Numbered from the stretch's first letter, positions 3,510-12,492 are shown. The stretch: DNA of 32,438 nt from a virus (IMGVR_UViG_2534681773_000029), one strand, 5' to 3'. Notes: a model not told the origin generated them from the sequence alone. Numbers and translations: made by a program.

Positions 3510-5775
3510 AGCCTCCGGGCGTTTTGTCCCTCCGTCAGCATTTACCGCAGGCACCGGTAAGGCGTTTACCGGTGCTTATGCATGGAACGCGCCACGCGAG
3601 GCTGTCGGGCGCGAAAGACCTCTTACACGTGACGAGATGCGTCAGGTGCAAGGTGTTTTATCCACGATTAACCGCCTGCCTTACTTTTTGCGCTCGCTGT
3701 TTACTTCACGCTATGACTACATCCGGCGCAATAAAAGCCCGGTGCACGGGTTTTATTTCCTCACATCTACTTTTCAGCGTCGTTTATGGCCGCGCATTGA
3801 GCGTGTGAATCAGCGCCATGAAATGAACACCGACGCGTCGTTGCTGTTTCTGGCAGAGCGTGACCACTATGCGCGCCTGCCGGGAATGAATGACAAGGAG
3901 CTGAAAAAGTTTGCCGCCCGTATCTCATCGCAGCTTTTCATGATGTATGAGGAACTCTGCGATGCATGGGTTGATGCGCATGGTGAAAAAGAATCGCTGT
4001 TTACGGATGAGGCGCAGGCTCACCTCTATGGTCATGTTGCTGGCGCTGCACGTGCTTTCAATATTTCCCCGCTCTACTGGAAAAAATACCGTAAAGGACA
4101 GATGACCACGAGGCAGGCATATTCTGCCATTGCCCGCCTGTTTAACGATGAGTGGTGGACTCATCAGCTTAAAGGCCAGCGTATGCGCTGGCATGAGGCG
4201 TTACTGATAGCTGTCGGGGAGGTCAATAAAGACCGTTCTCCTTATGCCAGTAAACACGCCATTCGTGATGTGCGTGCGCGCCGCCAGGCAAATCTGGAAT
4301 TTCTTAAATCGTGTGACCTTGAAAACAGGGAAACCGGCGAGCGCATCGACCTTATCAGTAAGGTGATGGGCAGTATTTCTAATCCTGAAATTCGCCGGAT
4401 GGAGCTGATGAACACCATTGCCGGTATTGAGCGTTACGCCGCCGCAGAGGGTGATGTGGGGATGTTTATCACGCTGACCGCGCCGTCAAAGTATCACCCG
4501 ACACGTCAGGTCGGAAAAGGCGAAAGTAAAACCGTTCAGCTTAATCACGGCTGGAACGATGAGGCATTTAATCCAAAGGATGCGCAGCGTTATCTCTGCC
4601 GTATCTGGAGCCTGATGCGCACGGCATTCAAGGATAATGATTTACAGGTCTACGGTTTGCGAGTCGTCGAGCCACACCACGACGGAACGCCGCACTGGCA
4701 TATGATGCTTTTTTGTCATCCACGCCAGCGTAACCAGATTATCGAAATCATGCGTCGCTATGCGCTCAAAGAGGATGGCGACGAAAGAGGAGCCGCGCGA
4801 AACCGTTTTCAGGCAAAACACCTTAACCGGGGCGGTGCTGCGGGATATATCGCGAAATACATTTCAAAAAACATCGACGGCTATGCACTGGATGGTCAGC
4901 TCGATAACGACACCGGCAGGCCGCTGAAAGACACTGCAGCGGCTGTTACCGCATGGGCGTCAACGTGGCGCATTCCGCAATTTAAAACGGTTGGCCTGCC
5001 GACAATGGGGGCTTACCGTGAACTACGCAAATTGCCTCGCGGCGTCAGCATTGCTGATGAGTTTGACGAGCGCGTCGAGGCTGCACGCGCCGCCGCAGAC
5101 AGTGGTGATTTTGCGCTGTATATCAGCGCGCAGGGCGGGGCAAATGTCCCGCGCGATTGTCAGACTGTCAGGGTCGCCCGTAGTCTGTCGGATGACGTTA
5201 ACGAGTACGAGGAAGAAGTCGAGAGAGTGGTCGGCATTTACGCGCCGCATCTCGGCGCGCGTCATATTCATATCACCAGAACGACGGACTGGCGCATTGT
5301 GCCGAAAGTTCCGGTCGTTGAGCCTTTGACTTTAAAAAGCGGCATCGCCGCGCCTCGGAGTCCTGTCAATAACTGTGGAAAGCTCACCGGTGGTGATACT
5401 TCGTTACCGGCTCCCACACCTTCTGAGCACGCCGCAGCAGTGCTTAATCTGGTTGATGACGATGTTATCGAATGGAATGACCCGGAGGTCGTGAGGGCGC
5501 TCAGGGGCGCATTAAAACACGACCGGAGAACGCCAAACCGTCAGCAAAGAAACGGAAGCCCGTTAAAACCGCATGAAATTGCACCATCGGCCAGACTGAC
5601 CCGGTCGGAACGATTGCAAATTACCCGTATCCGCGTTGATCTCGCTCAGAACGGTATCAGGCCGCAACGATGGGAGCTTGAGGCGCTGGCGCGTGGCGCG
5701 ACCGTAAATTATGACGGGAAACCTTTCACTTATCAGGTCGCTGATGATTGGCCGGGATTTTTGTTACCCATTTGA
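3499..5775 (+). CDS. A: Replication initiation endonuclease gpA (HUH rolling-circle initiator)
   Basis: 758-aa ORF from ATG 3499 (MAVKASGRFVPP); HUH motif PHWHMMLF and catalytic-Tyr motif YIAKYISKN visible; matches P2 A. The track start at 3457 overlaps the upstream gene. Confidence 0.9.
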   Translation: MAVKASGRFVPPSAFTAGTGKAFTGAYAWNAPREAVGRERPLTRDEMRQVQGVLSTINRLPYFLRSLFTSRYDYIRRNKSPVHGFYFLTSTFQRRLWPRIERVNQRHEMNTDASLLFLAERDHYARLPGMNDKELKKFAARISSQLFMMYEELCDAWVDAHGEKESLFTDEAQAHLYGHVAGAARAFNISPLYWKKYRKGQMTTRQAYSAIARLFNDEWWTHQLKGQRMRWHEALLIAVGEVNKDRSPYASKHAIRDVRARRQANLEFLKSCDLENRETGERIDLISKVMGSISNPEIRRMELMNTIAGIERYAAAEGDVGMFITLTAPSKYHPTRQVGKGESKTVQLNHGWNDEAFNPKDAQRYLCRIWSLMRTAFKDNDLQVYGLRVVEPHHDGTPHWHMMLFCHPRQRNQIIEIMRRYALKEDGDERGAARNRFQAKHLNRGGAAGYIAKYISKNIDGYALDGQLDNDTGRPLKDTAAAVTAWASTWRIPQFKTVGLPTMGAYRELRKLPRGVSIADEFDERVEAARAAADSGDFALYISAQGGANVPRDCQTVRVARSLSDDVNEYEEEVERVVGIYAPHLGARHIHITRTTDWRIVPKVPVVEPLTLKSGIAAPRSPVNNCGKLTGGDTSLPAPTPSEHAAAVLNLVDDDVIEWNDPEVVRALRGALKHDRRTPNRQQRNGSPLKPHEIAPSARLTRSERLQITRIRVDLAQNGIRPQRWELEALARGATVNYDGKPFTYQVADDWPGFLLPI

Positions 5776-5992
5776 GTAAAAATACAGCGTGATTTTATAT
5801 GTCTTTGAATGGATTATGCGAAGCACCTCTAAGGTAGATGAGGAGCAATAGCGTGTTGAATCAGAAGGCTAAATTGTATTGAATCGTTAGCATGTAATTG
5901 AAGGCAGCTATTTGATTCGAGTCATAAAAGAGCATCTATTTCGGTTAATAAAACCATTGCGAGTGACTTTATGTCGAAGCATAATTCATCTC

Positions 5993-6006
5993 GAGCGAAG
6001 TCTTGC
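5993..6006. repeat. 14-bp direct repeat GAGCGAAGTCTTGC, copy 1
   Basis: Exact match to 6257-6270; copy 1 sits just after a TTGCGA-N17-CATAAT promoter-like element (5957-5985). Confidence 0.7.
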
Positions 6007-6034
6007 TAGTCTTTCATCGGATTGATGACGGGCG

Positions 6035-6066
6035 CAAAAAAACCACCCTGGCAGGTGGTTTTTTTG
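6035..6066. terminator. Bidirectional intrinsic terminator (A-run, ACCACC-loop-GGTGGT hairpin, T7 run)
   Basis: aaaaaaaccaccctggcaggtggttttttt read directly; works on both strands. Confidence 0.6.
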
Positions 6067-6077
6067 TTTGAAGCATA

Positions 6078-6191
6078 CTAAAGAAAAATACTTACATGGA
6101 TATTACTGACGTTTACTGACAAACCACTCGGACTACCATATGGATAGCCAAAGAGGGCCAGAACGAGAATGCAGTAATAGCACTTCTTCAT
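6078..6191 (-). CDS. Candidate 37-aa hydrophobic peptide (MKKCYYCILVLALFGYPYGSPSGLSVNVSNIHVSIFL); possible type I toxin-like or small membrane protein
   Basis: ATG at 6191 preceded by AGGAGG; ends 12 nt before the terminator at 6035-6066; below the ORF-track length cutoff so hand-translated. Not a recognised family. Confidence 0.35.
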   Translation of the reverse strand: MKKCYYCILVLALFGYPYGSPSGLSVNVSNIHVSIFL

Positions 6192-6256
6192 ATCGCCTCC
6201 TGTAAGCAGAGGGCAATTTCCGCCGATATATGCGCTTCTAAGGCGGAGTGACTATT

Positions 6257-6270
6257 GAGCGAAGTCTTGC
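6257..6270. repeat. 14-bp direct repeat GAGCGAAGTCTTGC, copy 2 (in predicted 5' UTR of the small-peptide mRNA)
   Basis: Exact copy of 5993-6006; lies about 66 nt upstream of the peptide start on the minus strand. Confidence 0.7.
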
Positions 6271-6847
6271 CCTGAAATAATGCTCTGTTTAAACGCAAAG
6301 TGATCTGGCATATCACCGAACAGAGGACCTGAACAACACAACATATAGTATGTCGTTGTTTCTGGTTGCATTTTATGTTGTGTAATACTGGTTTTGCATC
6401 AAGGATGTTTGAGCTTTTTTTGATATAGCTCAAAGTAAAAAGCAGAGACTACGGATGATAAGGTCTTGAAAGCAATGTAAATTTTTTAAAGTTGTGAGTG
6501 GCTAGAAATGCACAGTTTCAATATGGCGGATTTAAACAAGTAATTAAAAATAGCGACATAAATTCCAATAAAATCATTAGGTTGCGTTTTCTGTGGAAAC
6601 TTCGGTGACTCTGAAATTTTCTTTTAGTGTCGCTGAGGTTTAACAACTCGCTGCGCAAGTAGTTAGTGTTTTTTTAACTCAATATTCTGATTTATAAGGT
6701 TTTTTATAAATCGTGGGCTGGTTGCGCGTATTCATCTCGTGTTATCAGCAAAGATAAGCTCTATATGCAGAACTGAATGCATATATGATGTCGAAAATGT
6801 TATGGGAAAACGTGGATTAGTGTTATAGTAATGGCTGAAAAACAGCC

Positions 6848-6876
6848 TTGACATAAAATAACAACTGTGATATGGC
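6848..6876 (+). promoter_or_regulatory. Possible promoter for the peptidase gene (TTGACA -35 at 6848-6853; weak -10 TATGGC after 17-nt spacer)
   Basis: Perfect -35 hexamer but poor -10; low confidence. Confidence 0.25.
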
Positions 6877-6912
6877 TGTGCATACTTAACTTTTTTAACG
6901 TAGGAGGCAACC

Positions 6913-7398
6913 ATGAGCTATGCAGCTAAAAAACTGCTTGACCGCTATTGGGATCGCCGACTACCTGTCGATCCGTTTAAGCTTGCTAAAGCGTGGGGTG
7001 CTCGTGTTGAAGCACTTGAGGAATCGGCTTATAACAACGATGGGTTAAGCGGTCTGGCTGTCATCAAAAAGGGTGTCCATAGGATTTATTTTGATTCTAG
7101 TGAACATTCTAATCGTCAACGTTTTACTGTTGCACACGAGTTAGGTCATCATGTGCTGGGGCATACCCAGGACGGAGAGTACCATCGGGATAATGTCGGG
7201 AATTATTCAACAGGTGCTCGTGATTATCGTGAGGTTGAAGCAAACAAGTTTGCTGCTGAGTTGTTAATGCCTGAGTCTGCTATACGTCAATTGGTATCCA
7301 GAGAAGGTATTGATAGCACTTTGAGATTAGCAAGCATCTTTAATGTATCAGAAGCCGCTATGCATTGGCGCTTAAAGAGCTTAGGAATGGCTTATTAA
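6913..7398 (+). CDS. ImmA/IrrE-family (M78-like) Zn metallopeptidase
   Basis: 161-aa ORF with AGGAGG SD; HEXXH motif (AHELGHHVLGH) and downstream EVEANKFAAELLMPE, the signature of ImmA/IrrE peptidases. No HTH partner gene adjacent. Confidence 0.8.
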   Translation: MSYAAKKLLDRYWDRRLPVDPFKLAKAWGARVEALEESAYNNDGLSGLAVIKKGVHRIYFDSSEHSNRQRFTVAHELGHHVLGHTQDGEYHRDNVGNYSTGARDYREVEANKFAAELLMPESAIRQLVSREGIDSTLRLASIFNVSEAAMHWRLKSLGMAY

Positions 7399-7423
7399 TT
7401 AGCCTTTAACTTTTAACCTGTTT

Positions 7424-7464
7424 AAAATCACCTTTACGTTTGTACATGTAAGGGTGATTTTTTT
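7424..7464 (+). terminator. Intrinsic terminator or attenuator downstream of peptidase gene
   Basis: Hairpin ATCACCTTTA / TAAGGGTGAT followed by T7, ending immediately before the ATG at 7465. Confidence 0.5.
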
Positions 7465-8064
7465 ATGGCTGATATTGATTTATCTGGACAGTCCCCAGAG
7501 CAAGGAACCACTCCTAAGGGCGATTTAGATCCTGATATCCTTATAAGGCGAGATAGACGGGATGGTATAGAGCGTAGAAGTATGCGATTAGTGCTCTCTG
7601 CCGTTGTGCTTTGTTTTGCTTGTACATTTCTATGGCAGGGGCTTAACTTTGCTTTGGCTGTTGGAAATGGCTTGCTGGAAGCGAAAAGCAGTATTGCCGC
7701 AGCGATAACACAAAAAGTAGATACACAAACTTGTGTTTCAGCAGAAAAATGTTCTGCTTTATCTTCGGATCCGAAGATGGCTGATGAGAGGATAACACCA
7801 TCTTCAGACACTAATAAAGTTAGAAAATCTATTTCTGGTTTATCCACCGATTGGTTATCGGCCAGTTCTCTAATAGCTATTGTTGCATTCATCCTTGGTG
7901 TGGGTTTAACTTTGCTTTTGACTCTTCTTAAATCAGCATTTCAACACCCGACAGATAAAGACTTTAGAACAAAGTCGACATCTAATACTATTGAGTTGGC
8001 CACGCCAATCAGTGAATTAATAATTGGTGTTCTGAATATAATTAAAGACAAACTATCTAAGTAA
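7465..8064 (+). CDS. Predicted membrane protein with two hydrophobic helices, unknown function
   Basis: 199-aa ORF; hydrophobic stretches RLVLSAVVLCFACTFLWQGLNFALAV and SSLIAIVAFILGVGLTLLLTLL; improbably long open frame for AT-rich DNA. Start uncertain: no good SD at 7465, internal Met at 7582. A minus-strand ORF 7434..7892 overlaps it. Confidence 0.4.
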   Translation: MADIDLSGQSPEQGTTPKGDLDPDILIRRDRRDGIERRSMRLVLSAVVLCFACTFLWQGLNFALAVGNGLLEAKSSIAAAITQKVDTQTCVSAEKCSALSSDPKMADERITPSSDTNKVRKSISGLSTDWLSASSLIAIVAFILGVGLTLLLTLLKSAFQHPTDKDFRTKSTSNTIELATPISELIIGVLNIIKDKLSK

Positions 8065-8106
8065 AGCATTAGTTGTGATTTTTTATTGGTTTTAGTGATA
8101 ATACAT

Positions 8107-8140
8107 CTCCAGTACTTATTGTTACTGGAGAGTATTTTTA
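8107..8140. terminator. Hairpin (CTCCAGTA / TACTGGAG) with T-rich tail between convergent genes
   Basis: Perfect 8-bp inverted repeat with 8-nt loop, followed by AGTATTTTTA. Confidence 0.4.
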
Positions 8141-8247
8141 GTCGTTTTATATTTTTAATGTTAGTGAATGATATTCACGAGAGTTCACGTTCGATGTGAT
8201 GTAATCGGGGGCGTTAACACCAAGAATCGCAACGAGTAATCGGCAAA

Positions 8248-9087
8248 TTAAAGCCTGCATTTGTTGTAATATGTCATCTCCATATTGATAATTGTTAATA
8301 GTGGTAAAGCCAAGTGGTTGACCATGAAACATAGCTTCATGAAAGTTTTCATTGCGGATGTTTGTAATGTTTTTTTGCCTGTAACCCATGATGGTCGTGG
8401 TATTCCATAAGTTTTGCAGATCCACTTCAAGCGCCTGGAGTGATTTAGAGTCTTTTCTGTACACTTGTTCTTTTCTGCCCATGTTAAAGCAAAGCAACTA
8501 TCCAGTGCCATATAAAGATACTGGAATTTTTCGAAGCTAAGGTATTGTGGGTTTTGGGATAAAAATAGTGCATGCACTATTGCTGCTATATTTATTGGTG
8601 CGTGTTTGGTTTTTGTCTCGCTAGACATGTATTTGAGTGCTAATTCTATAACCTCTTTTTCAGAGCACTTGACCAGAATAAAGTCAGTTAATTTGCTGGG
8701 TTTTATTGGGGTTGCGTCTAAAAAACCGGCATCAGTAGTTGTTAATCTTATCCCTTTGAAAAAAGACAGACACCACACAGCAAAATTGAGAGTTTCTAGT
8801 GAAGATGTATTTTTTAATTTTAGTGAGTGTGTTTTGGGTAAGCCAAATACTCGTTGGCTAAAAGGCATTGTGGATATGCCTCCATTGAGGTTATATACTT
8901 CTTGGTTTCCTGGGTATATCCAACCGTTAATAACATTTCTGTGATTGTTTATAAGATTTGTTTTTTCCGCTAGACCGGGTAAAGTAAGTAAAGAAAAATC
9001 ATCAGTTTCAACGTTAACTTCTACTGGATAGTATCCAAACTCAGCTTCAATATCATTGGATTGCTGTTCGTCAACTTTACCTTGCAT
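8248..9087 (-). CDS. Hypothetical protein of unknown family in cargo island; possibly frameshifted (see overlapping ORF 8147..8497)
   Basis: 279-aa minus-strand ORF; a second open frame continues to 8147. One extra A in the A7 run (plus-strand T7 at 8370-8376) would fuse them into about 313 aa. No recognisable catalytic motif. Confidence 0.45.
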   Translation of the reverse strand: MQGKVDEQQSNDIEAEFGYYPVEVNVETDDFSLLTLPGLAEKTNLINNHRNVINGWIYPGNQEVYNLNGGISTMPFSQRVFGLPKTHSLKLKNTSSLETLNFAVWCLSFFKGIRLTTTDAGFLDATPIKPSKLTDFILVKCSEKEVIELALKYMSSETKTKHAPINIAAIVHALFLSQNPQYLSFEKFQYLYMALDSCFALTWAEKNKCTEKTLNHSRRLKWICKTYGIPRPSWVTGKKTLQTSAMKTFMKLCFMVNHLALPLLTIINMEMTYYNKCRL

Positions 9088-9324
9088 ACATTGCTCCGGT
9101 CAAAAATAGGCTCGATAATTCTCGTAAGCCTATCATGTTCGCAAAGTATCCATACCTGTGGATTTTGTAAATTTAAGTTGATTTGTCATTAAATAAGCCG
9201 TTGCATGCAACAAGTGAATGTTTTTGCATGCGTCGGGGATGTCCGTTCAGGCTGCGTGCGGTCAGGACTGGTGCGGATCCATAGTATCTATGCAACTGCA
9301 TTAAAACCGCCCCATGAAGCGGGC

Positions 9325-9343
9325 GGGCGAGGCGGGGAAAGCA
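9325..9343. other. cos: cos site (19-nt cohesive-end sequence GGCGAGGCGGGGAAAGCAC)
   Basis: Exact match to the P2/P4 cohesive-end sequence as I recall it; lies in the expected place upstream of Q. Confidence 0.7.
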
Positions 9344-9486
9344 CTGCGCGCTGGCGGTGGTGCTGATTTTATTTTTTCAGCGTCTGAGCGCGTCGTGATG
9401 GCGTTTAGATTGTTCGCCGGGGCGTTGGTGTGTCTGCGGGCTGTTTTGTGCGGTGGTGAGCGTGTGAGGGCGTGATGGCGGGTTGT

Positions 9487-9513: not shown

Positions 9514-10503
9514 TCAGCCGTTGTCAGTGTCCAGTGAGTAGTTTTTAAAGCGGATGACCTCCTGACCGAGCCAGCCGTTTATTTCCCGAATCCTGTCCTG
9601 TAACGGGATTAGCTCATTGCGGACAAAGACCTTTGCCACTTTCTCAATATCGCCCAGTGACCCGACGTTCTCCGGCTTGCCACCCATCAACTGAAAGGGG
9701 ATGCGGTGTGCGTCCAGCAGGTCAGCGGCGCTGGCTTTTTTGATATTAAAAAAATCGTCCTTCGTCGCCACTTCACTGAGCGGGATAATTTTAATGCCGT
9801 CGGCTTTCCCCTGCGGGGCATAGAGAAACAGGTTTTTAAAGTTGTTGCGGCCTTTCGACTTCACCATGTTTTCGCGAAGCATTTCGATATCGTTGCGATC
9901 CTGCACGGCATCGGTAACGTACATGATGTATCCGGCATGTGCGCCGTTTTCGTAATACTTGCGGCGGAACAGCGTGGCCGACTCATTCAGCCAGGCAGAG
10001 TTAAGGGCGCTGAGATATTCCGGCAGGCCATACAGCTCCTGATTAATATCCGGCTCCAGCAGGTGAAACACGGAGCCGGGCGTGAAAGGTGTCGGCTCGT
10101 TGAAGGACGGCACCCACCAGTAAACATCCTCCTCCACGCCACGACGGGTATATTTGGCCGGTGAGGTTTCCAGTCTGATGACCTTACCGGTGGTGCTGTA
10201 ACGCTTTTCCAGAAACGCATTACCGAACACCAGAAAATCCAGCACAAAGCGGCTGAAATCCTGCTGGGAAAGCCACGGGTGCGGGATAAACGTTGAGGCC
10301 AGAATATTACGTTTGACGTAAATCGGTGAGCTGTGATGCACGGCAGCACGCAGGCTTTTTGCCAGACCGGTAAAGCTGACCGGTGGCTCATACCATCTGC
10401 CGTTACTGATGCATTCGACGTAATCCAGAATGTCACGGCGGTCGAGTACCGGCACCGGCTCGCCAAAGGTGAATGCCTCCATTTTCGGGGCGCTGGCGGT
10501 CAT
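9514..10503 (-). CDS. Q: Portal protein gpQ
   Basis: 329-aa ORF matching P2 Q. A 15-codon ORF (10500..10547) starts at an ATG overlapping the P stop and would join in frame with one extra homopolymer base, giving 344 aa. Confidence 0.85.
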   Translation of the reverse strand: MTASAPKMEAFTFGEPVPVLDRRDILDYVECISNGRWYEPPVSFTGLAKSLRAAVHHSSPIYVKRNILASTFIPHPWLSQQDFSRFVLDFLVFGNAFLEKRYSTTGKVIRLETSPAKYTRRGVEEDVYWWVPSFNEPTPFTPGSVFHLLEPDINQELYGLPEYLSALNSAWLNESATLFRRKYYENGAHAGYIMYVTDAVQDRNDIEMLRENMVKSKGRNNFKNLFLYAPQGKADGIKIIPLSEVATKDDFFNIKKASAADLLDAHRIPFQLMGGKPENVGSLGDIEKVAKVFVRNELIPLQDRIREINGWLGQEVIRFKNYSLDTDNG

Positions 10504-10546: not shown

Positions 10547-12319
10547 TCAGTAAAACTCCAGAATGGTGGATGTCAGCGGGGTGCTGATACCCGCGGTGAG
10601 TGGCTCATTTAACAGGGCATGCATGGTCGCCCAGGCGAGGTCGGCGTGGCTGGCTTCCTCGCTGCGGCTGGCCTCATAGGTGGCGCTGCGTCCGCTGCTG
10701 GTCATGGTCTTGCGGATAGCCATAAACGAGCTGGTGATGTCGGTGGCGCTGACGTCATATTCCAGACAGCCACGGCGAATAACGTCTTTTGCCTTGAGCA
10801 CCATTGCGGTTTTCATTTCCGGCGTGTAGCGGATATCGCGCGCGGCGGGATAGAACGAGCGCACGAGCTGGAACACGCCGACACCGAGGCCGGTGGCATC
10901 AATTCCGATGTATTCGACGTTGTATTTTTCGGTGAGTTTGCGGATGGATTCAGCCTGAGTGGCAAAGTCCATGCCTTTCCACTGGTGACGCTCAAGTATT
11001 CTGAATTTGCCACCGGCCACCACCGGCGGTGCCAGCACCACGCATCCGGCACTGTCGCCACGGTGTGACGGGTCGTAACCAATCCATACCGGGCGGGAGC
11101 CGAACGGATTCGCGGCAAACGGCGCATAGTCTTCCCATTCTTCCAGCGTGTCGACCATGCAGCGTTGCAGCTCCTCGAACGGGAACACCGACGCCTTGTC
11201 GTCAACAAATTCACACATGAACAGGTTTTTAAAATCGTCGGCGCTGTTTTCACGTTTGAGCTGCTCAATGTCGAACAGCGTGCAGCCGCCTTTCAGCGCG
11301 TCCTCAATGGTGACAATCTGCCGCCACTGGCCGTCCGCACAGAGAAGACCTCCGGCAAGGGCGTTATGACTGACGTCGATTTCCACGCGTTCGGCGGCGC
11401 TGGCGCGACCCCGGTTGAACAGTTCACCCGACCAGAACGGGTAGGCGTCGTGCGCCAGCGTGGACGGGGTGGAGAAATAGGTCGAGCGCAGGTGACTCTG
11501 TGAGGCCATACCTGATGCCACCTTACGCAGTACCTGAAAATTCGGGATCCAGAAAATCTCATCGACGTACAGGTCGCCGTTATGGCTCTGCGCGGTGTTG
11601 GAGTTGGTGCCGAGAAAAATCAGTTTTGCGCCGTTATTGCCCAGGACAATCGGGTCACCGGTCAGGTCAACGTCAACCAGCCGGGCAAAGGCGATGATGT
11701 ATTCGCGGAACACATACGCCTGCGTTTTACTGGCCGACAGAAAAATCTGGTTATGACCGGTTTTCAGGGCGCGCAGCAGCGCCTCGCGGGAAAAATAAAA
11801 CGTCGCGCCAATCTGGCGGGATTTCAGGATATCGCGGATGCGGTGCTCAAGCCCGGCGCGATACCAGTGCAACTGATATTCGAAAGACTGCTCAAAGAAA
11901 ATCTGCTCCAGCTTTTCGATGGCCTCGTCACTGAAAAAATTCTTTTTCGGTTTGCGACGCCCGCCCTTGTTGCGGTTAGCGACGTTCGGATTAAGGTCTG
12001 CCTCGTTGCCGGTCTGACTGTAACGGTTGACCCGTGCCAGTCGTTCAATCTGGCGTCCGAGCAGGTCAATTTCCTTGAAGTCACCGCCGGTTTTCTGCGG
12101 TTTGATGATGAGCTGGGTCAGCCTCGCTTCCAGACTCATTTCGACACGGCTGATGGGGGCAACGCTGTCCCAGCCGTCGCGCTGTTTCCAGCTCTGCACC
12201 GTCGGGCGTTTCATCTGCAACATGGCGGCAATCTGCGGCACGGAAAACCCCTGCCAGTACAGCAGCGCCGCCTGACGACGCGGATCGTGTAAAAGAGTGG
12301 TGTCTGTGGTGATGGTCAT
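10547..12319 (-). CDS. P: Terminase large subunit (ATPase) gpP
   Basis: ORF 10547..12349; ATG at 12319 (MTITTDTTLLHD) with GAGG SD gives 590 aa, the P2 P length. Confidence 0.9.
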   Translation of the reverse strand: MTITTDTTLLHDPRRQAALLYWQGFSVPQIAAMLQMKRPTVQSWKQRDGWDSVAPISRVEMSLEARLTQLIIKPQKTGGDFKEIDLLGRQIERLARVNRYSQTGNEADLNPNVANRNKGGRRKPKKNFFSDEAIEKLEQIFFEQSFEYQLHWYRAGLEHRIRDILKSRQIGATFYFSREALLRALKTGHNQIFLSASKTQAYVFREYIIAFARLVDVDLTGDPIVLGNNGAKLIFLGTNSNTAQSHNGDLYVDEIFWIPNFQVLRKVASGMASQSHLRSTYFSTPSTLAHDAYPFWSGELFNRGRASAAERVEIDVSHNALAGGLLCADGQWRQIVTIEDALKGGCTLFDIEQLKRENSADDFKNLFMCEFVDDKASVFPFEELQRCMVDTLEEWEDYAPFAANPFGSRPVWIGYDPSHRGDSAGCVVLAPPVVAGGKFRILERHQWKGMDFATQAESIRKLTEKYNVEYIGIDATGLGVGVFQLVRSFYPAARDIRYTPEMKTAMVLKAKDVIRRGCLEYDVSATDITSSFMAIRKTMTSSGRSATYEASRSEEASHADLAWATMHALLNEPLTAGISTPLTSTILEFY

Positions 12320-12492
12320 GAATACCTCGCCGTGATGAATACACGGCAAGGCTACTGAGTCGCGCCCCGCGATTCGCTAAGGTGCTGTTGTGTCAGTGAT
12401 AAGCCATCCGGGACTGATGGCGGAGGATGCGCATCGTCGGGAAACTGATGCCGACATGTGACTCCTCTAATCACTATTCAGGACTCCTGACA

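Follow-up and report, generated by a model that had tools for sequence, protein, structure and literature searches.

The virus IMGVR_UViG_2534681773_000029 is a P2-like phage (Peduovirus) that carries a stretch of adenine–thymine (AT)-rich cargo, positions 5,776–9,324, between its replication and packaging genes. We analysed the complete 32,438-nucleotide stretch of its DNA, hereafter called the window. Gene A, which encodes the replication endonuclease, ends at position 5775 and forms the left flank of the segment, whereas the P2 cos cohesive-end sequence closes it on the right, followed by portal gene Q and terminase gene P. Within these borders lie four parts: a locus with a small open reading frame (ORF) and a candidate small RNA (sRNA), a gene for an ImmA/IrrE-type (M78) peptidase, a gene for a two-helix membrane protein (hereafter 2TM), and, on the strand opposite to these two genes, a gene whose intact form encodes 313 amino acids (hereafter ORF313). 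A sequence-only reading of this DNA had listed the same four items, all of which are present, and had placed them in about 3.5 kb of AT-rich DNA between gene A and cos. Composition bears this out, with a guanine-plus-cytosine (GC) fraction of 0.389 in the segment versus 0.539 in the remainder of the window. The segment is the lowest-GC 3.5-kb stretch of the window (the minimum among all such windows begins at 5701), and its four parts are alike in composition (0.35–0.40).

Both position and content identify the segment as cargo of the variable gpA–gpQ (tin/old) hotspot of P2, as the sequence-only reading had proposed. It lies between gene A and cos/Q, and the same site holds other cargo in P2DC1, P2-EC67, OHT76 and E. 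coli 11PC. No island protein shows similarity to Old (ABC ATPase plus TOPRIM) or to Tin in PADLOC, Pfam or NCBIfam, in keeping with the earlier view that these genes are unrelated to tin and old. The cos string that borders the hotspot is also present in the P4 clones listed in Table S2A of Rousset et al. (PMC9122126). The same authors surveyed the gpA–gpQ locus in 18,150 E. coli prophages in 2022 and reported that it carries defence genes (PMC9122126).

We propose that three autonomous accessory modules, set side by side in the cos-proximal hotspot, make up the segment as a mosaic, and we put the probability of this reading, together with the module roles proposed below, at roughly 0.6. Module A comprises the small ORF and candidate sRNA (5957–6489), module B the M78 and 2TM genes (6848–8131), and module C ORF313 (8147–9087). 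What our comparisons show is the anatomy of the modules, their conservation and their independence. In E. coli 11PC, the first ~730 bp of the segment (module A) run straight into the cos region, so that module A stands alone. In the "P2" isolate P2DC1 and in E. coli OHT76, M78 and 2TM are followed directly by cos without ORF313, and ORF313 occurs without M78, beside other genes, in P2-EC67 and several Yersinia phages. All three modules are found outside P2 as well. Every part of the segment comes with promoter-like sites of its own, and the convergent units are set apart by bidirectional terminators at 6035–6066 and 8106–8131 (Table 1).

The same distributions bear on the idea that the whole island is a single integrated defence system, with peptidase, membrane protein, ORF313 and RNA locus cooperating. 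Such a system would fit the contiguity of the four parts, their similar AT-richness and their joint occurrence, as 46 of 5426 complete E. coli genomes, and likewise Salmonella phage MET_P1_103_31, carry the whole island at 99.8% identity. However, every part is also seen without the others, in P2 hotspots and elsewhere, which largely refutes the idea. The separate promoters and terminators point the same way, and Rousset et al. likewise divide the protein genes into two systems (PMC9122126). We therefore consider an integrated system highly improbable. Comparison with other P2-like prophages thus returned full islands (those 46 genomes and one phage) as well as modules that are separate elsewhere, and the idea of one island-wide system does not hold up, because the parts occur apart in other P2 hotspots and outside P2.

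Table 1. Features of the accessory segment and its right flank, in window coordinates.
Feature	Position	Strand	Basis and remarks
sRNA promoter-like site (TTGCGA, 17-bp spacer, CATAAT)	5957–5985	+	Promoter scan; hexamers kept in P2 and Klebsiella-plasmid homologues
Candidate sRNA, ~76 nt	5992–6067	+	5' seed, internal stem-loop, poly-U terminator; minimum free energy -31.6 kcal/mol
Bidirectional intrinsic terminator	6035–6066	both	13-bp perfect inverted repeat between A7 and T7; invariant in all homologues
37-codon ORF, MKKCYYCILVLALFGYPYGSPSGLSVNVSNIHVSIFL	6078–6191	-	AGGAGG Shine–Dalgarno (SD) sequence; length, start, stop and SD kept in homologues
Inferred 5' untranslated region (UTR) of small-ORF mRNA, ~170 nt	6192–6363	-	Start inferred; contains sRNA target
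nrdDG-promoter-like block	6368–6489	-	-10 TAAAAT (6375–6370) and two FNR-type boxes
Hairpin and terminator-like element	6589–6677	+	Seen in sequence; within 280-bp spacer
M78 operon promoter-like site (TTGACA, 17-bp spacer, TATGGC)	6848–6876	+	Read from sequence
ImmA/IrrE (M78) peptidase, 161 aa	6913–7398	+	Pfam PF06114, E 3.8e-21
Terminator-like hairpin and U-run	7424–7464	+	Fold -20.9 kcal/mol, z -4.55; ends at 2TM ATG
Two-helix membrane protein (2TM), 199 aa	7465–8064	+	phrog_8096; hydropathy
Bidirectional terminator	8106–8131	both	Between convergent 2TM and ORF313 genes; scan
ORF313, putatively HEPN-like	8147–9087 (equivalent of intact gene)	-	279 aa as read (8248–9087), frameshifted
P2 cos cohesive-end sequence, GGCGAGGCGGGGAAAGCAC	9326–9344	+	Exact match, 0/100 shuffles; right border of hotspot
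Portal gene Q	9514–10503	-	Right of segment
Terminase gene P	10547–12349	-	Right of Q

Module A lies in a region (5776–6912) for which RefSeq records annotate no gene. Its small ORF nevertheless keeps the features given in Table 1 in P2DC1, E. coli 11PC and Klebsiella plasmids, the plasmid homologues of the module being ~75% identical in DNA. Differences between the ORF and its plasmid copy number 4, 9 and 17 at codon positions 1, 2 and 3, respectively, and are thus biased toward the third position. Only in phage MET_P1_103_31 is the ORF annotated. A 39-codon ORF further upstream (6252–6371, minus strand) was considered as a coding sequence and rejected, as it is interrupted in two homologues. 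Module A is present in 152 of the 5426 E. coli genomes, always unannotated, and a tblastn search with the peptide retrieved 392 plasmids, nearly all from Klebsiella and mostly conjugative, in which it is again unannotated. On one plasmid, pJ53-KPC_Vir, the module A homologue lies between insertion sequence elements, with a dinQ type I toxin gene annotated ~1 kb away (the two features are at 2501–2918 and 3901–4038 in locus coordinates); small-toxin loci may cluster there.

Convergent with the small ORF is the candidate sRNA, whose transcript would share the terminator at 6035–6066 with that of the ORF. At its 5' end the sRNA carries a seed, GAGCGAAGUCUUGC (5993–6006), that is invariant in 6 homologues. 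The internal stem differs in sequence in the plasmid copies and keeps its pairing, with five base pairs changed on both sides in the RNAalifold consensus. The candidate sRNA matches no Rfam family at gathering score, and at E-values up to 1 Rfam gave only chance-level, terminator-driven hits (RNAI, Phe leader and mir-644).

The seed links the two transcripts. It recurs as an exact 14-nt direct DNA repeat (5993–6006 and 6257–6270), and because it does, the convergent RNAs are complementary at a site 66 nt upstream of the ORF's ATG, where the sRNA target GCAAGACUUCGCUC is encoded at 6257–6270. Any 14-mer repeat at all arose in 10 of 2000 shuffles, and not one of 1000 shuffled seeds equalled the predicted -31 kcal/mol of the seed–UTR duplex. 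On the plasmids, the repeat lengthens to 17 nt at both sites while the flanks have diverged.

The small ORF is also preceded by a putative promoter that resembles a host one. Positions 6393–6489 are ~85% identical to the treC–nrdD intergenic region, which all 5426 E. coli genomes contain, and share the orientation of nrdD; the alignment reaches the conserved -10 hexamer. Relative to the inferred start (~6363), two FNR-type boxes, TTGATGCAAAACCA (6402–6389) and TTGAGCTATATCAA (6433–6420), lie ~32.5 and ~63.5 bp upstream, in agreement with positions of -33.5 and -64.5 for the FNR boxes of nrdDG. The boxes and the -10 hexamer are conserved in the plasmid homologues, where the boxes are partly in better form. 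At nrdDG itself, FNR activates transcription and an NrdR box overlaps one FNR site (PMC2892513). The phage copy has not kept the NrdR boxes of nrdDG. The nrdDG-like block sits within phage cargo and is directed toward the small ORF.

As judged from these computed features, the layout of module A resembles that of a type I toxin–antitoxin (TA) locus. The nrdDG-homologous promoter with its two FNR-type boxes would drive a minus-strand mRNA made up of the ~170-nt 5' UTR and the 37-codon ORF. The convergent ~76-nt sRNA, ending in the same terminator, would pair with the UTR through its 14-nt seed and, because this 5' seed is complementary to the UTR, would repress or destabilise the small-ORF mRNA. 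Computationally, the sRNA of the locus is complementary to the candidate toxin mRNA, as expected of a type I pair.

The closest known design is par (Fst/RNA II) of plasmid pAD1, in which the convergent transcripts end at one bidirectional terminator and owe their complementarity to a direct DNA repeat. More broadly, tisB/istR-1, zorO/orzO and par all combine a small ORF, a long structured 5' UTR and an sRNA whose 5' end pairs upstream of the ribosome-binding site, and type I loci are likewise borne on plasmids and prophages. Module A nevertheless shows no sequence or Rfam match to these three systems, and its peptide lacks a full-length transmembrane helix. Its promoter also looks FNR-dependent, unlike the LexA-dependent or constitutive promoters of those systems.

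These differences give force to a serious alternative in which module A is not toxic. The locus could encode an sRNA-regulated small membrane or exported protein made anaerobically, that is, a host-physiology "moron", or its sRNA could mainly target host or phage mRNAs. Such a role would fit an FNR-type promoter common to nrdDG, a signal-peptide-like N-terminus in place of a full transmembrane helix, and the lack of a match to any known type I toxin family. It fits less well with carriage by prophage hotspots and large conjugative plasmids, which are typical sites of addiction modules, or with the co-conservation of seed and target. The convergent layout, shared terminator and complementarity-giving direct repeat also mirror par. 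Weighing both sides, we hold a non-toxic role to be possible but would bet against it.

Modules A and B are separated by a 280-bp spacer (6511–6790, GC 0.35) that contains a long hairpin (6589–6652) followed by a plus-strand terminator-like element. The spacer and its hairpin are common only to P2DC1-type islands, and the interval 6500–6800 has no relatives outside these islands, including elsewhere in E. coli.

Module B begins with a peptidase whose family is clear. The M78 protein scores 75.6 bits in Pfam against a cut-off of 22, contains HELGH and EANKFAAELLMP, and retains the full motif HELGH...EANxFAxxLLMP. Among PADLOC profiles the best match is capP (1.1e-30), followed by RmrA of RosmerTA; the protein belongs to phrog_87, and its nearest solved structure is CapP (7t5t, E 7.6e-7), with IrrE next. 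The ~100 bp upstream of its ATG are conserved among three E. coli variants. The protein is a bare catalytic core that lacks both a helix-turn-helix (HTH) domain and a C-terminal sensor domain, and its neighbours in all six contexts include no HTH gene. Profile and structure searches of the island ORFs, a check that the sequence-only reading had put forward, thus placed the peptidase with PF06114 and CapP and gave no Pfam, PADLOC or NCBIfam family for 2TM, ORF313 or the small-ORF peptide.

2TM has two hydrophobic stretches, at residues ~38–66 and 126–160. From the N-terminus, an alignment of homologues (A4) shows a variable, disordered tail rich in P, S, T and Q, a basic juxtamembrane segment, the first transmembrane helix, a loop with two Cys residues, an invariant second helix (AFILGVGLTLxLTLLK) and a C-terminal amphipathic helix. 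Because of the positive charges, both termini are predicted to be cytoplasmic. We found 53 homologues in Enterobacterales, Vibrio and Acinetobacter; the AlphaFold2 model of the protein is weak, with a predicted local distance difference test score (pLDDT) of 63. The start of 2TM differs between sources, RefSeq beginning at MADIDL (199 aa) and the table of Rousset et al. at MRLVL (159 aa), so that the segment concerned is 7465–7584. Conservation of the N-terminal extension in many homologues favours the longer form.

Between the two genes lies a hairpin that appears suited to restrain the second. The only SD-like bases for 2TM fall within the 3' arm of this hairpin. In 6 of 6 cassettes examined (from E. 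coli, Enterobacter, Serratia and Vibrio), a hairpin followed by 5–7 U abuts the 2TM ATG, with z scores of -4.2 to -5.0 and 0 of 200 shuffles folding as well. The Vibrio hairpin is unrelated in sequence to the others, so that structure is kept where sequence differs. In locus coordinates, the Enterobacter, Serratia and Vibrio hairpins lie at ~3955–4000. The order M78, ~70-bp spacer, 2TM recurs on an Enterobacter plasmid contig, in a recombinase-flanked Vibrio harveyi element and in a Serratia chromosome. The Serratia locus also holds, ~1.8 kb downstream of the M78–2TM cassette, a RosmerTA-like pair (6463–8246 in locus coordinates) made up of a 223-aa protein and a 371-aa HTH_3 plus Peptidase_M78 protein, and two M78 modules thus adjoin there.

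We hypothesize that module B is a toxin–antitoxin or abortive-infection device. A minimal ImmA/IrrE-type zinc peptidase would be made first, and 2TM second, its expression limited by a terminator hairpin in which the ribosome-binding site is also sequestered. With the SD in the 3' arm of a hairpin at the ATG, the sequence indicates that 2TM may be made sparingly relative to the peptidase, as a toxin is behind its antitoxin. 2TM would be the toxic effector, and the peptidase would control it proteolytically, probably through its cytoplasmic N-terminal tail; cleavage may either activate or destroy it. ImmA/ImmR, IrrE/DdrO, CapP/CapH, RmrA of RosmerTA and PD-lambda-2B have the same zinc-peptidase core, whose HExxH...EANxFA signature is intact here, and related M78 domains act in RosmerTA, CapP and PD-lambda-2B. 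In those systems, however, an HTH repressor is fused to or paired with the peptidase, several of them with a sensor domain, whereas here a bare core is paired with 2TM.

The kinship with repressor-cleaving peptidases suggests the chief rival role for module B, namely a lysogeny-type pair in which an ImmA-like peptidase cleaves a repressor, its own or a competitor's, and the membrane protein provides superinfection exclusion. Cleavage of HTH repressors is common to the characterised relatives ImmA, IrrE and CapP, and CapP is the best match by both profile and structure. In many Gram-positive temperate phages, moreover, a COG2856 peptidase adjoins an exclusion gene within the lysogeny module. 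Against this, none of the six contexts has an HTH gene, 2TM being the sole constant partner, and the pair also occurs in a plasmid contig and a chromosome, distant from any phage repressor. An SD-occluding hairpin at the ATG likewise suits a scarce product better than a constitutive exclusion protein. We regard the lysogeny-type role as rather unlikely and keep to a peptidase-controlled membrane effector as the preferred reading of module B.

Module C is a single gene, and its copy in the window is damaged. One T has been lost from a run of eight, leaving T7 at 8370–8376; the intact gene, as in E. coli TST3, encodes 313 aa. The sequence-only reading had noted a protein of about 280–310 aa that it did not recognise: the gene is real, and the lower end of that range corresponds to the 279 aa read from the window, the 313-aa length only to the intact form. 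The 47 complete E. coli genomes that carry this allele all have T8, and phage MET_P1_103_31 is likewise intact. The lesion is therefore either private to the window sequence or a homopolymer sequencing error. The frameshift falls ~6 codons before an RNENFH motif (encoded at 8356–8339), which is out of frame in the window copy. Because it is truncated just before the motif, the ORF313 encoded by the window is predicted to be inactive and should not be assumed functional.

The frameshift, together with more than 1 kb without annotated genes (5776–6912, RefSeq records), could suggest that the island is decaying, non-functional DNA. That account sits poorly with a frameshift confined to the window, with protein families conserved across orders, and with an apparently empty kilobase in which a conserved ORF lies together with promoters, a terminator and an RNA stem that covaries. 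We give it very little credence.

Intact ORF313 belongs to a broad family: one search gave 603 hits, and another gave 662 representatives at 50% identity, which keep the ~300-aa architecture. Its members, of ~300–325 aa, occur in Enterobacterales, Aeromonas, Pseudomonas, Acinetobacter and Stenotrophomonas. A homologue in Pseudomonas aeruginosa is a lone gene in an island, beside a Gabija-like ATPase/helicase pair. In Aeromonas, an AlkZ-like (PF06224) gene on the same strand invariably precedes the homologue, at a distance of 105 bp (4684–6963 in locus coordinates), and the AlkZ-like protein may be its partner there.

ORF313 is probably a HEPN-type protein. Residues R245-N246-(D/E)-x-x-H250-E251 are invariant in 32 members that are 44–79% identical to the first sequence, and they contain the conserved Rx4-6H motif expected of HEPN domains. 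One family member is named "Apea-like HEPN" in UniRef. The AlphaFold model is good overall (pLDDT 81, predicted template modelling score 0.83) and weak around the motif, and such matches to the HEPN fold as there are remain weak. A Foldseek search with this model found no match among viral structures or in the PDB, neither 42 full-length members nor 6 isolated C-terminal domains hit a Pfam HEPN family, and ORF313 has no PADLOC hit, including to ApeA or PD-T7-3, and no NCBIfam hit. A profile of the family gave one weak match in the PDB (E 0.015), which aligned the motif region to the N-terminus of NrdB and was judged to be chance. The match pairs ORF313 residues ~240–280 (window ~8250–8370) with residues 1–45 of E. 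coli NrdB, which include KNDQLKEPMFFGQPV, and is probably fortuitous, though odd beside an nrdD-like promoter in the same island.

We envisage ORF313 as a stand-alone protein in which an N-terminal alpha/beta domain would be joined to a C-terminal HEPN-like helical domain bearing RNDxxHE. It may be an RNase switched on by infection, an activity that we propose with less assurance than the HEPN assignment itself. ApeA, DARNA (PD-T7-3) and Tha are likewise stand-alone proteins with an Rx4H-type motif in a helical domain. ORF313 shares with them a location in prophages and defence islands, and its non-catalytic domain could be a sensor. We rejected identity with ApeA or DARNA on grounds of size, domain order and the lack of profile hits. 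ApeA, which has a Pfam family to itself, comprises ~580 aa in three domains that are mainly helical, in contrast to the 313 aa and N-terminal alpha/beta domain of ORF313, and DARNA has 456 aa with an N-terminal HEPN domain, whereas the ORF313 motif lies in the C-terminal domain. Tha, found in staphylococcal phages with an antisense inhibitor gene, is a functional analogue and not a relative.

Modules B and C are already catalogued, without an assigned function. The module C gene was first put on record as ORF313 of P2-EC67 (AM157369). In Table S5B of Rousset et al., a 313-aa protein without a domain is system #11 (218 occurrences), and a "Peptidase_M78" plus "2 TM" protein pair is system #21 (148 occurrences) (PMC9122126). 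These come from the same locus and are essentially the same proteins as those of the window. The M78 sequences are identical; ORF313 is identical save one residue in the part compared, with the window copy frameshifted; and 2TM differs by a few residues, with a start placed 40 residues later by Rousset et al. The RNA/small-ORF module is not in their catalogue, which is protein-based. No further paper came to light when full texts were searched for the accessions, the peptide or the seed sequence. The sequence-only reading had expected an undescribed system here, and this was partly correct: the functions are uncharacterised, but #11 and #21 had been listed in 2022 (PMC9122126). Rousset et al. 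also describe a system of "three hypothetical proteins" that is active against P1; we considered whether the island could be this system and rejected the idea, as the island proteins are not in the tables of tested systems. The three proteins of that system are described as having no clear predicted domain (PMC9122126), and within the island 2TM and ORF313 have no PADLOC hit.

Every function we attach to the modules is one that we infer, and several points weigh against these assignments. For module A, no Rfam or NCBIfam match was found to the known type I families (Hok, Ldr, Ibs, ShoB, TisB, DinQ, ZorO, Fst and others), the transcription starts (~5992 on the plus strand and ~6363 on the minus strand) are inferred, and the hydrophobic core of the peptide spans ~11–13 residues (Kyte–Doolittle hydropathy 1.2 over 19 residues), which is short for typical type I toxins. 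For module B, 2TM has no hit in Pfam, PADLOC or NCBIfam, and a peptidase paired with a membrane protein could equally form a lysogeny or exclusion module. For both protein modules, the ORF313, M78 and 2TM sequences are absent from the tables of tested systems (PMC9122126).

Anti-phage systems are known to come from the P2 hotspot, in which systems #11 and #21 rank 11th and 21st in abundance with no function assigned. For these modules we offer candidate mechanisms, namely a HEPN-type RNase with named putative catalytic residues and a peptidase-controlled membrane effector behind a conserved hairpin. We advance only tentatively the idea that module A is a new, FNR-activated type I TA or addiction family, or that module B is a new protease-gated membrane effector, or both. 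The sRNA/small-protein locus and the peptidase/membrane-protein cassette are the modules most likely to repay further work. If our reading of module B is right, a bare ImmA/IrrE peptidase acting on 2TM, and not on a repressor, would be a new wiring of M78 in phage defence or TA biology. Module A, beside gene A in the window, is a conserved sRNA/small-protein locus that 2.8% of complete E. coli genomes and several hundred Klebsiella plasmids carry and that catalogues built on genes overlook. Its FNR-type promoter suggests that cargo of mobile elements may be under oxygen-dependent control. If the TA reading is true, module A would represent a family common to P2 hotspots and large Klebsiella conjugative plasmids that is invisible to protein-based surveys.

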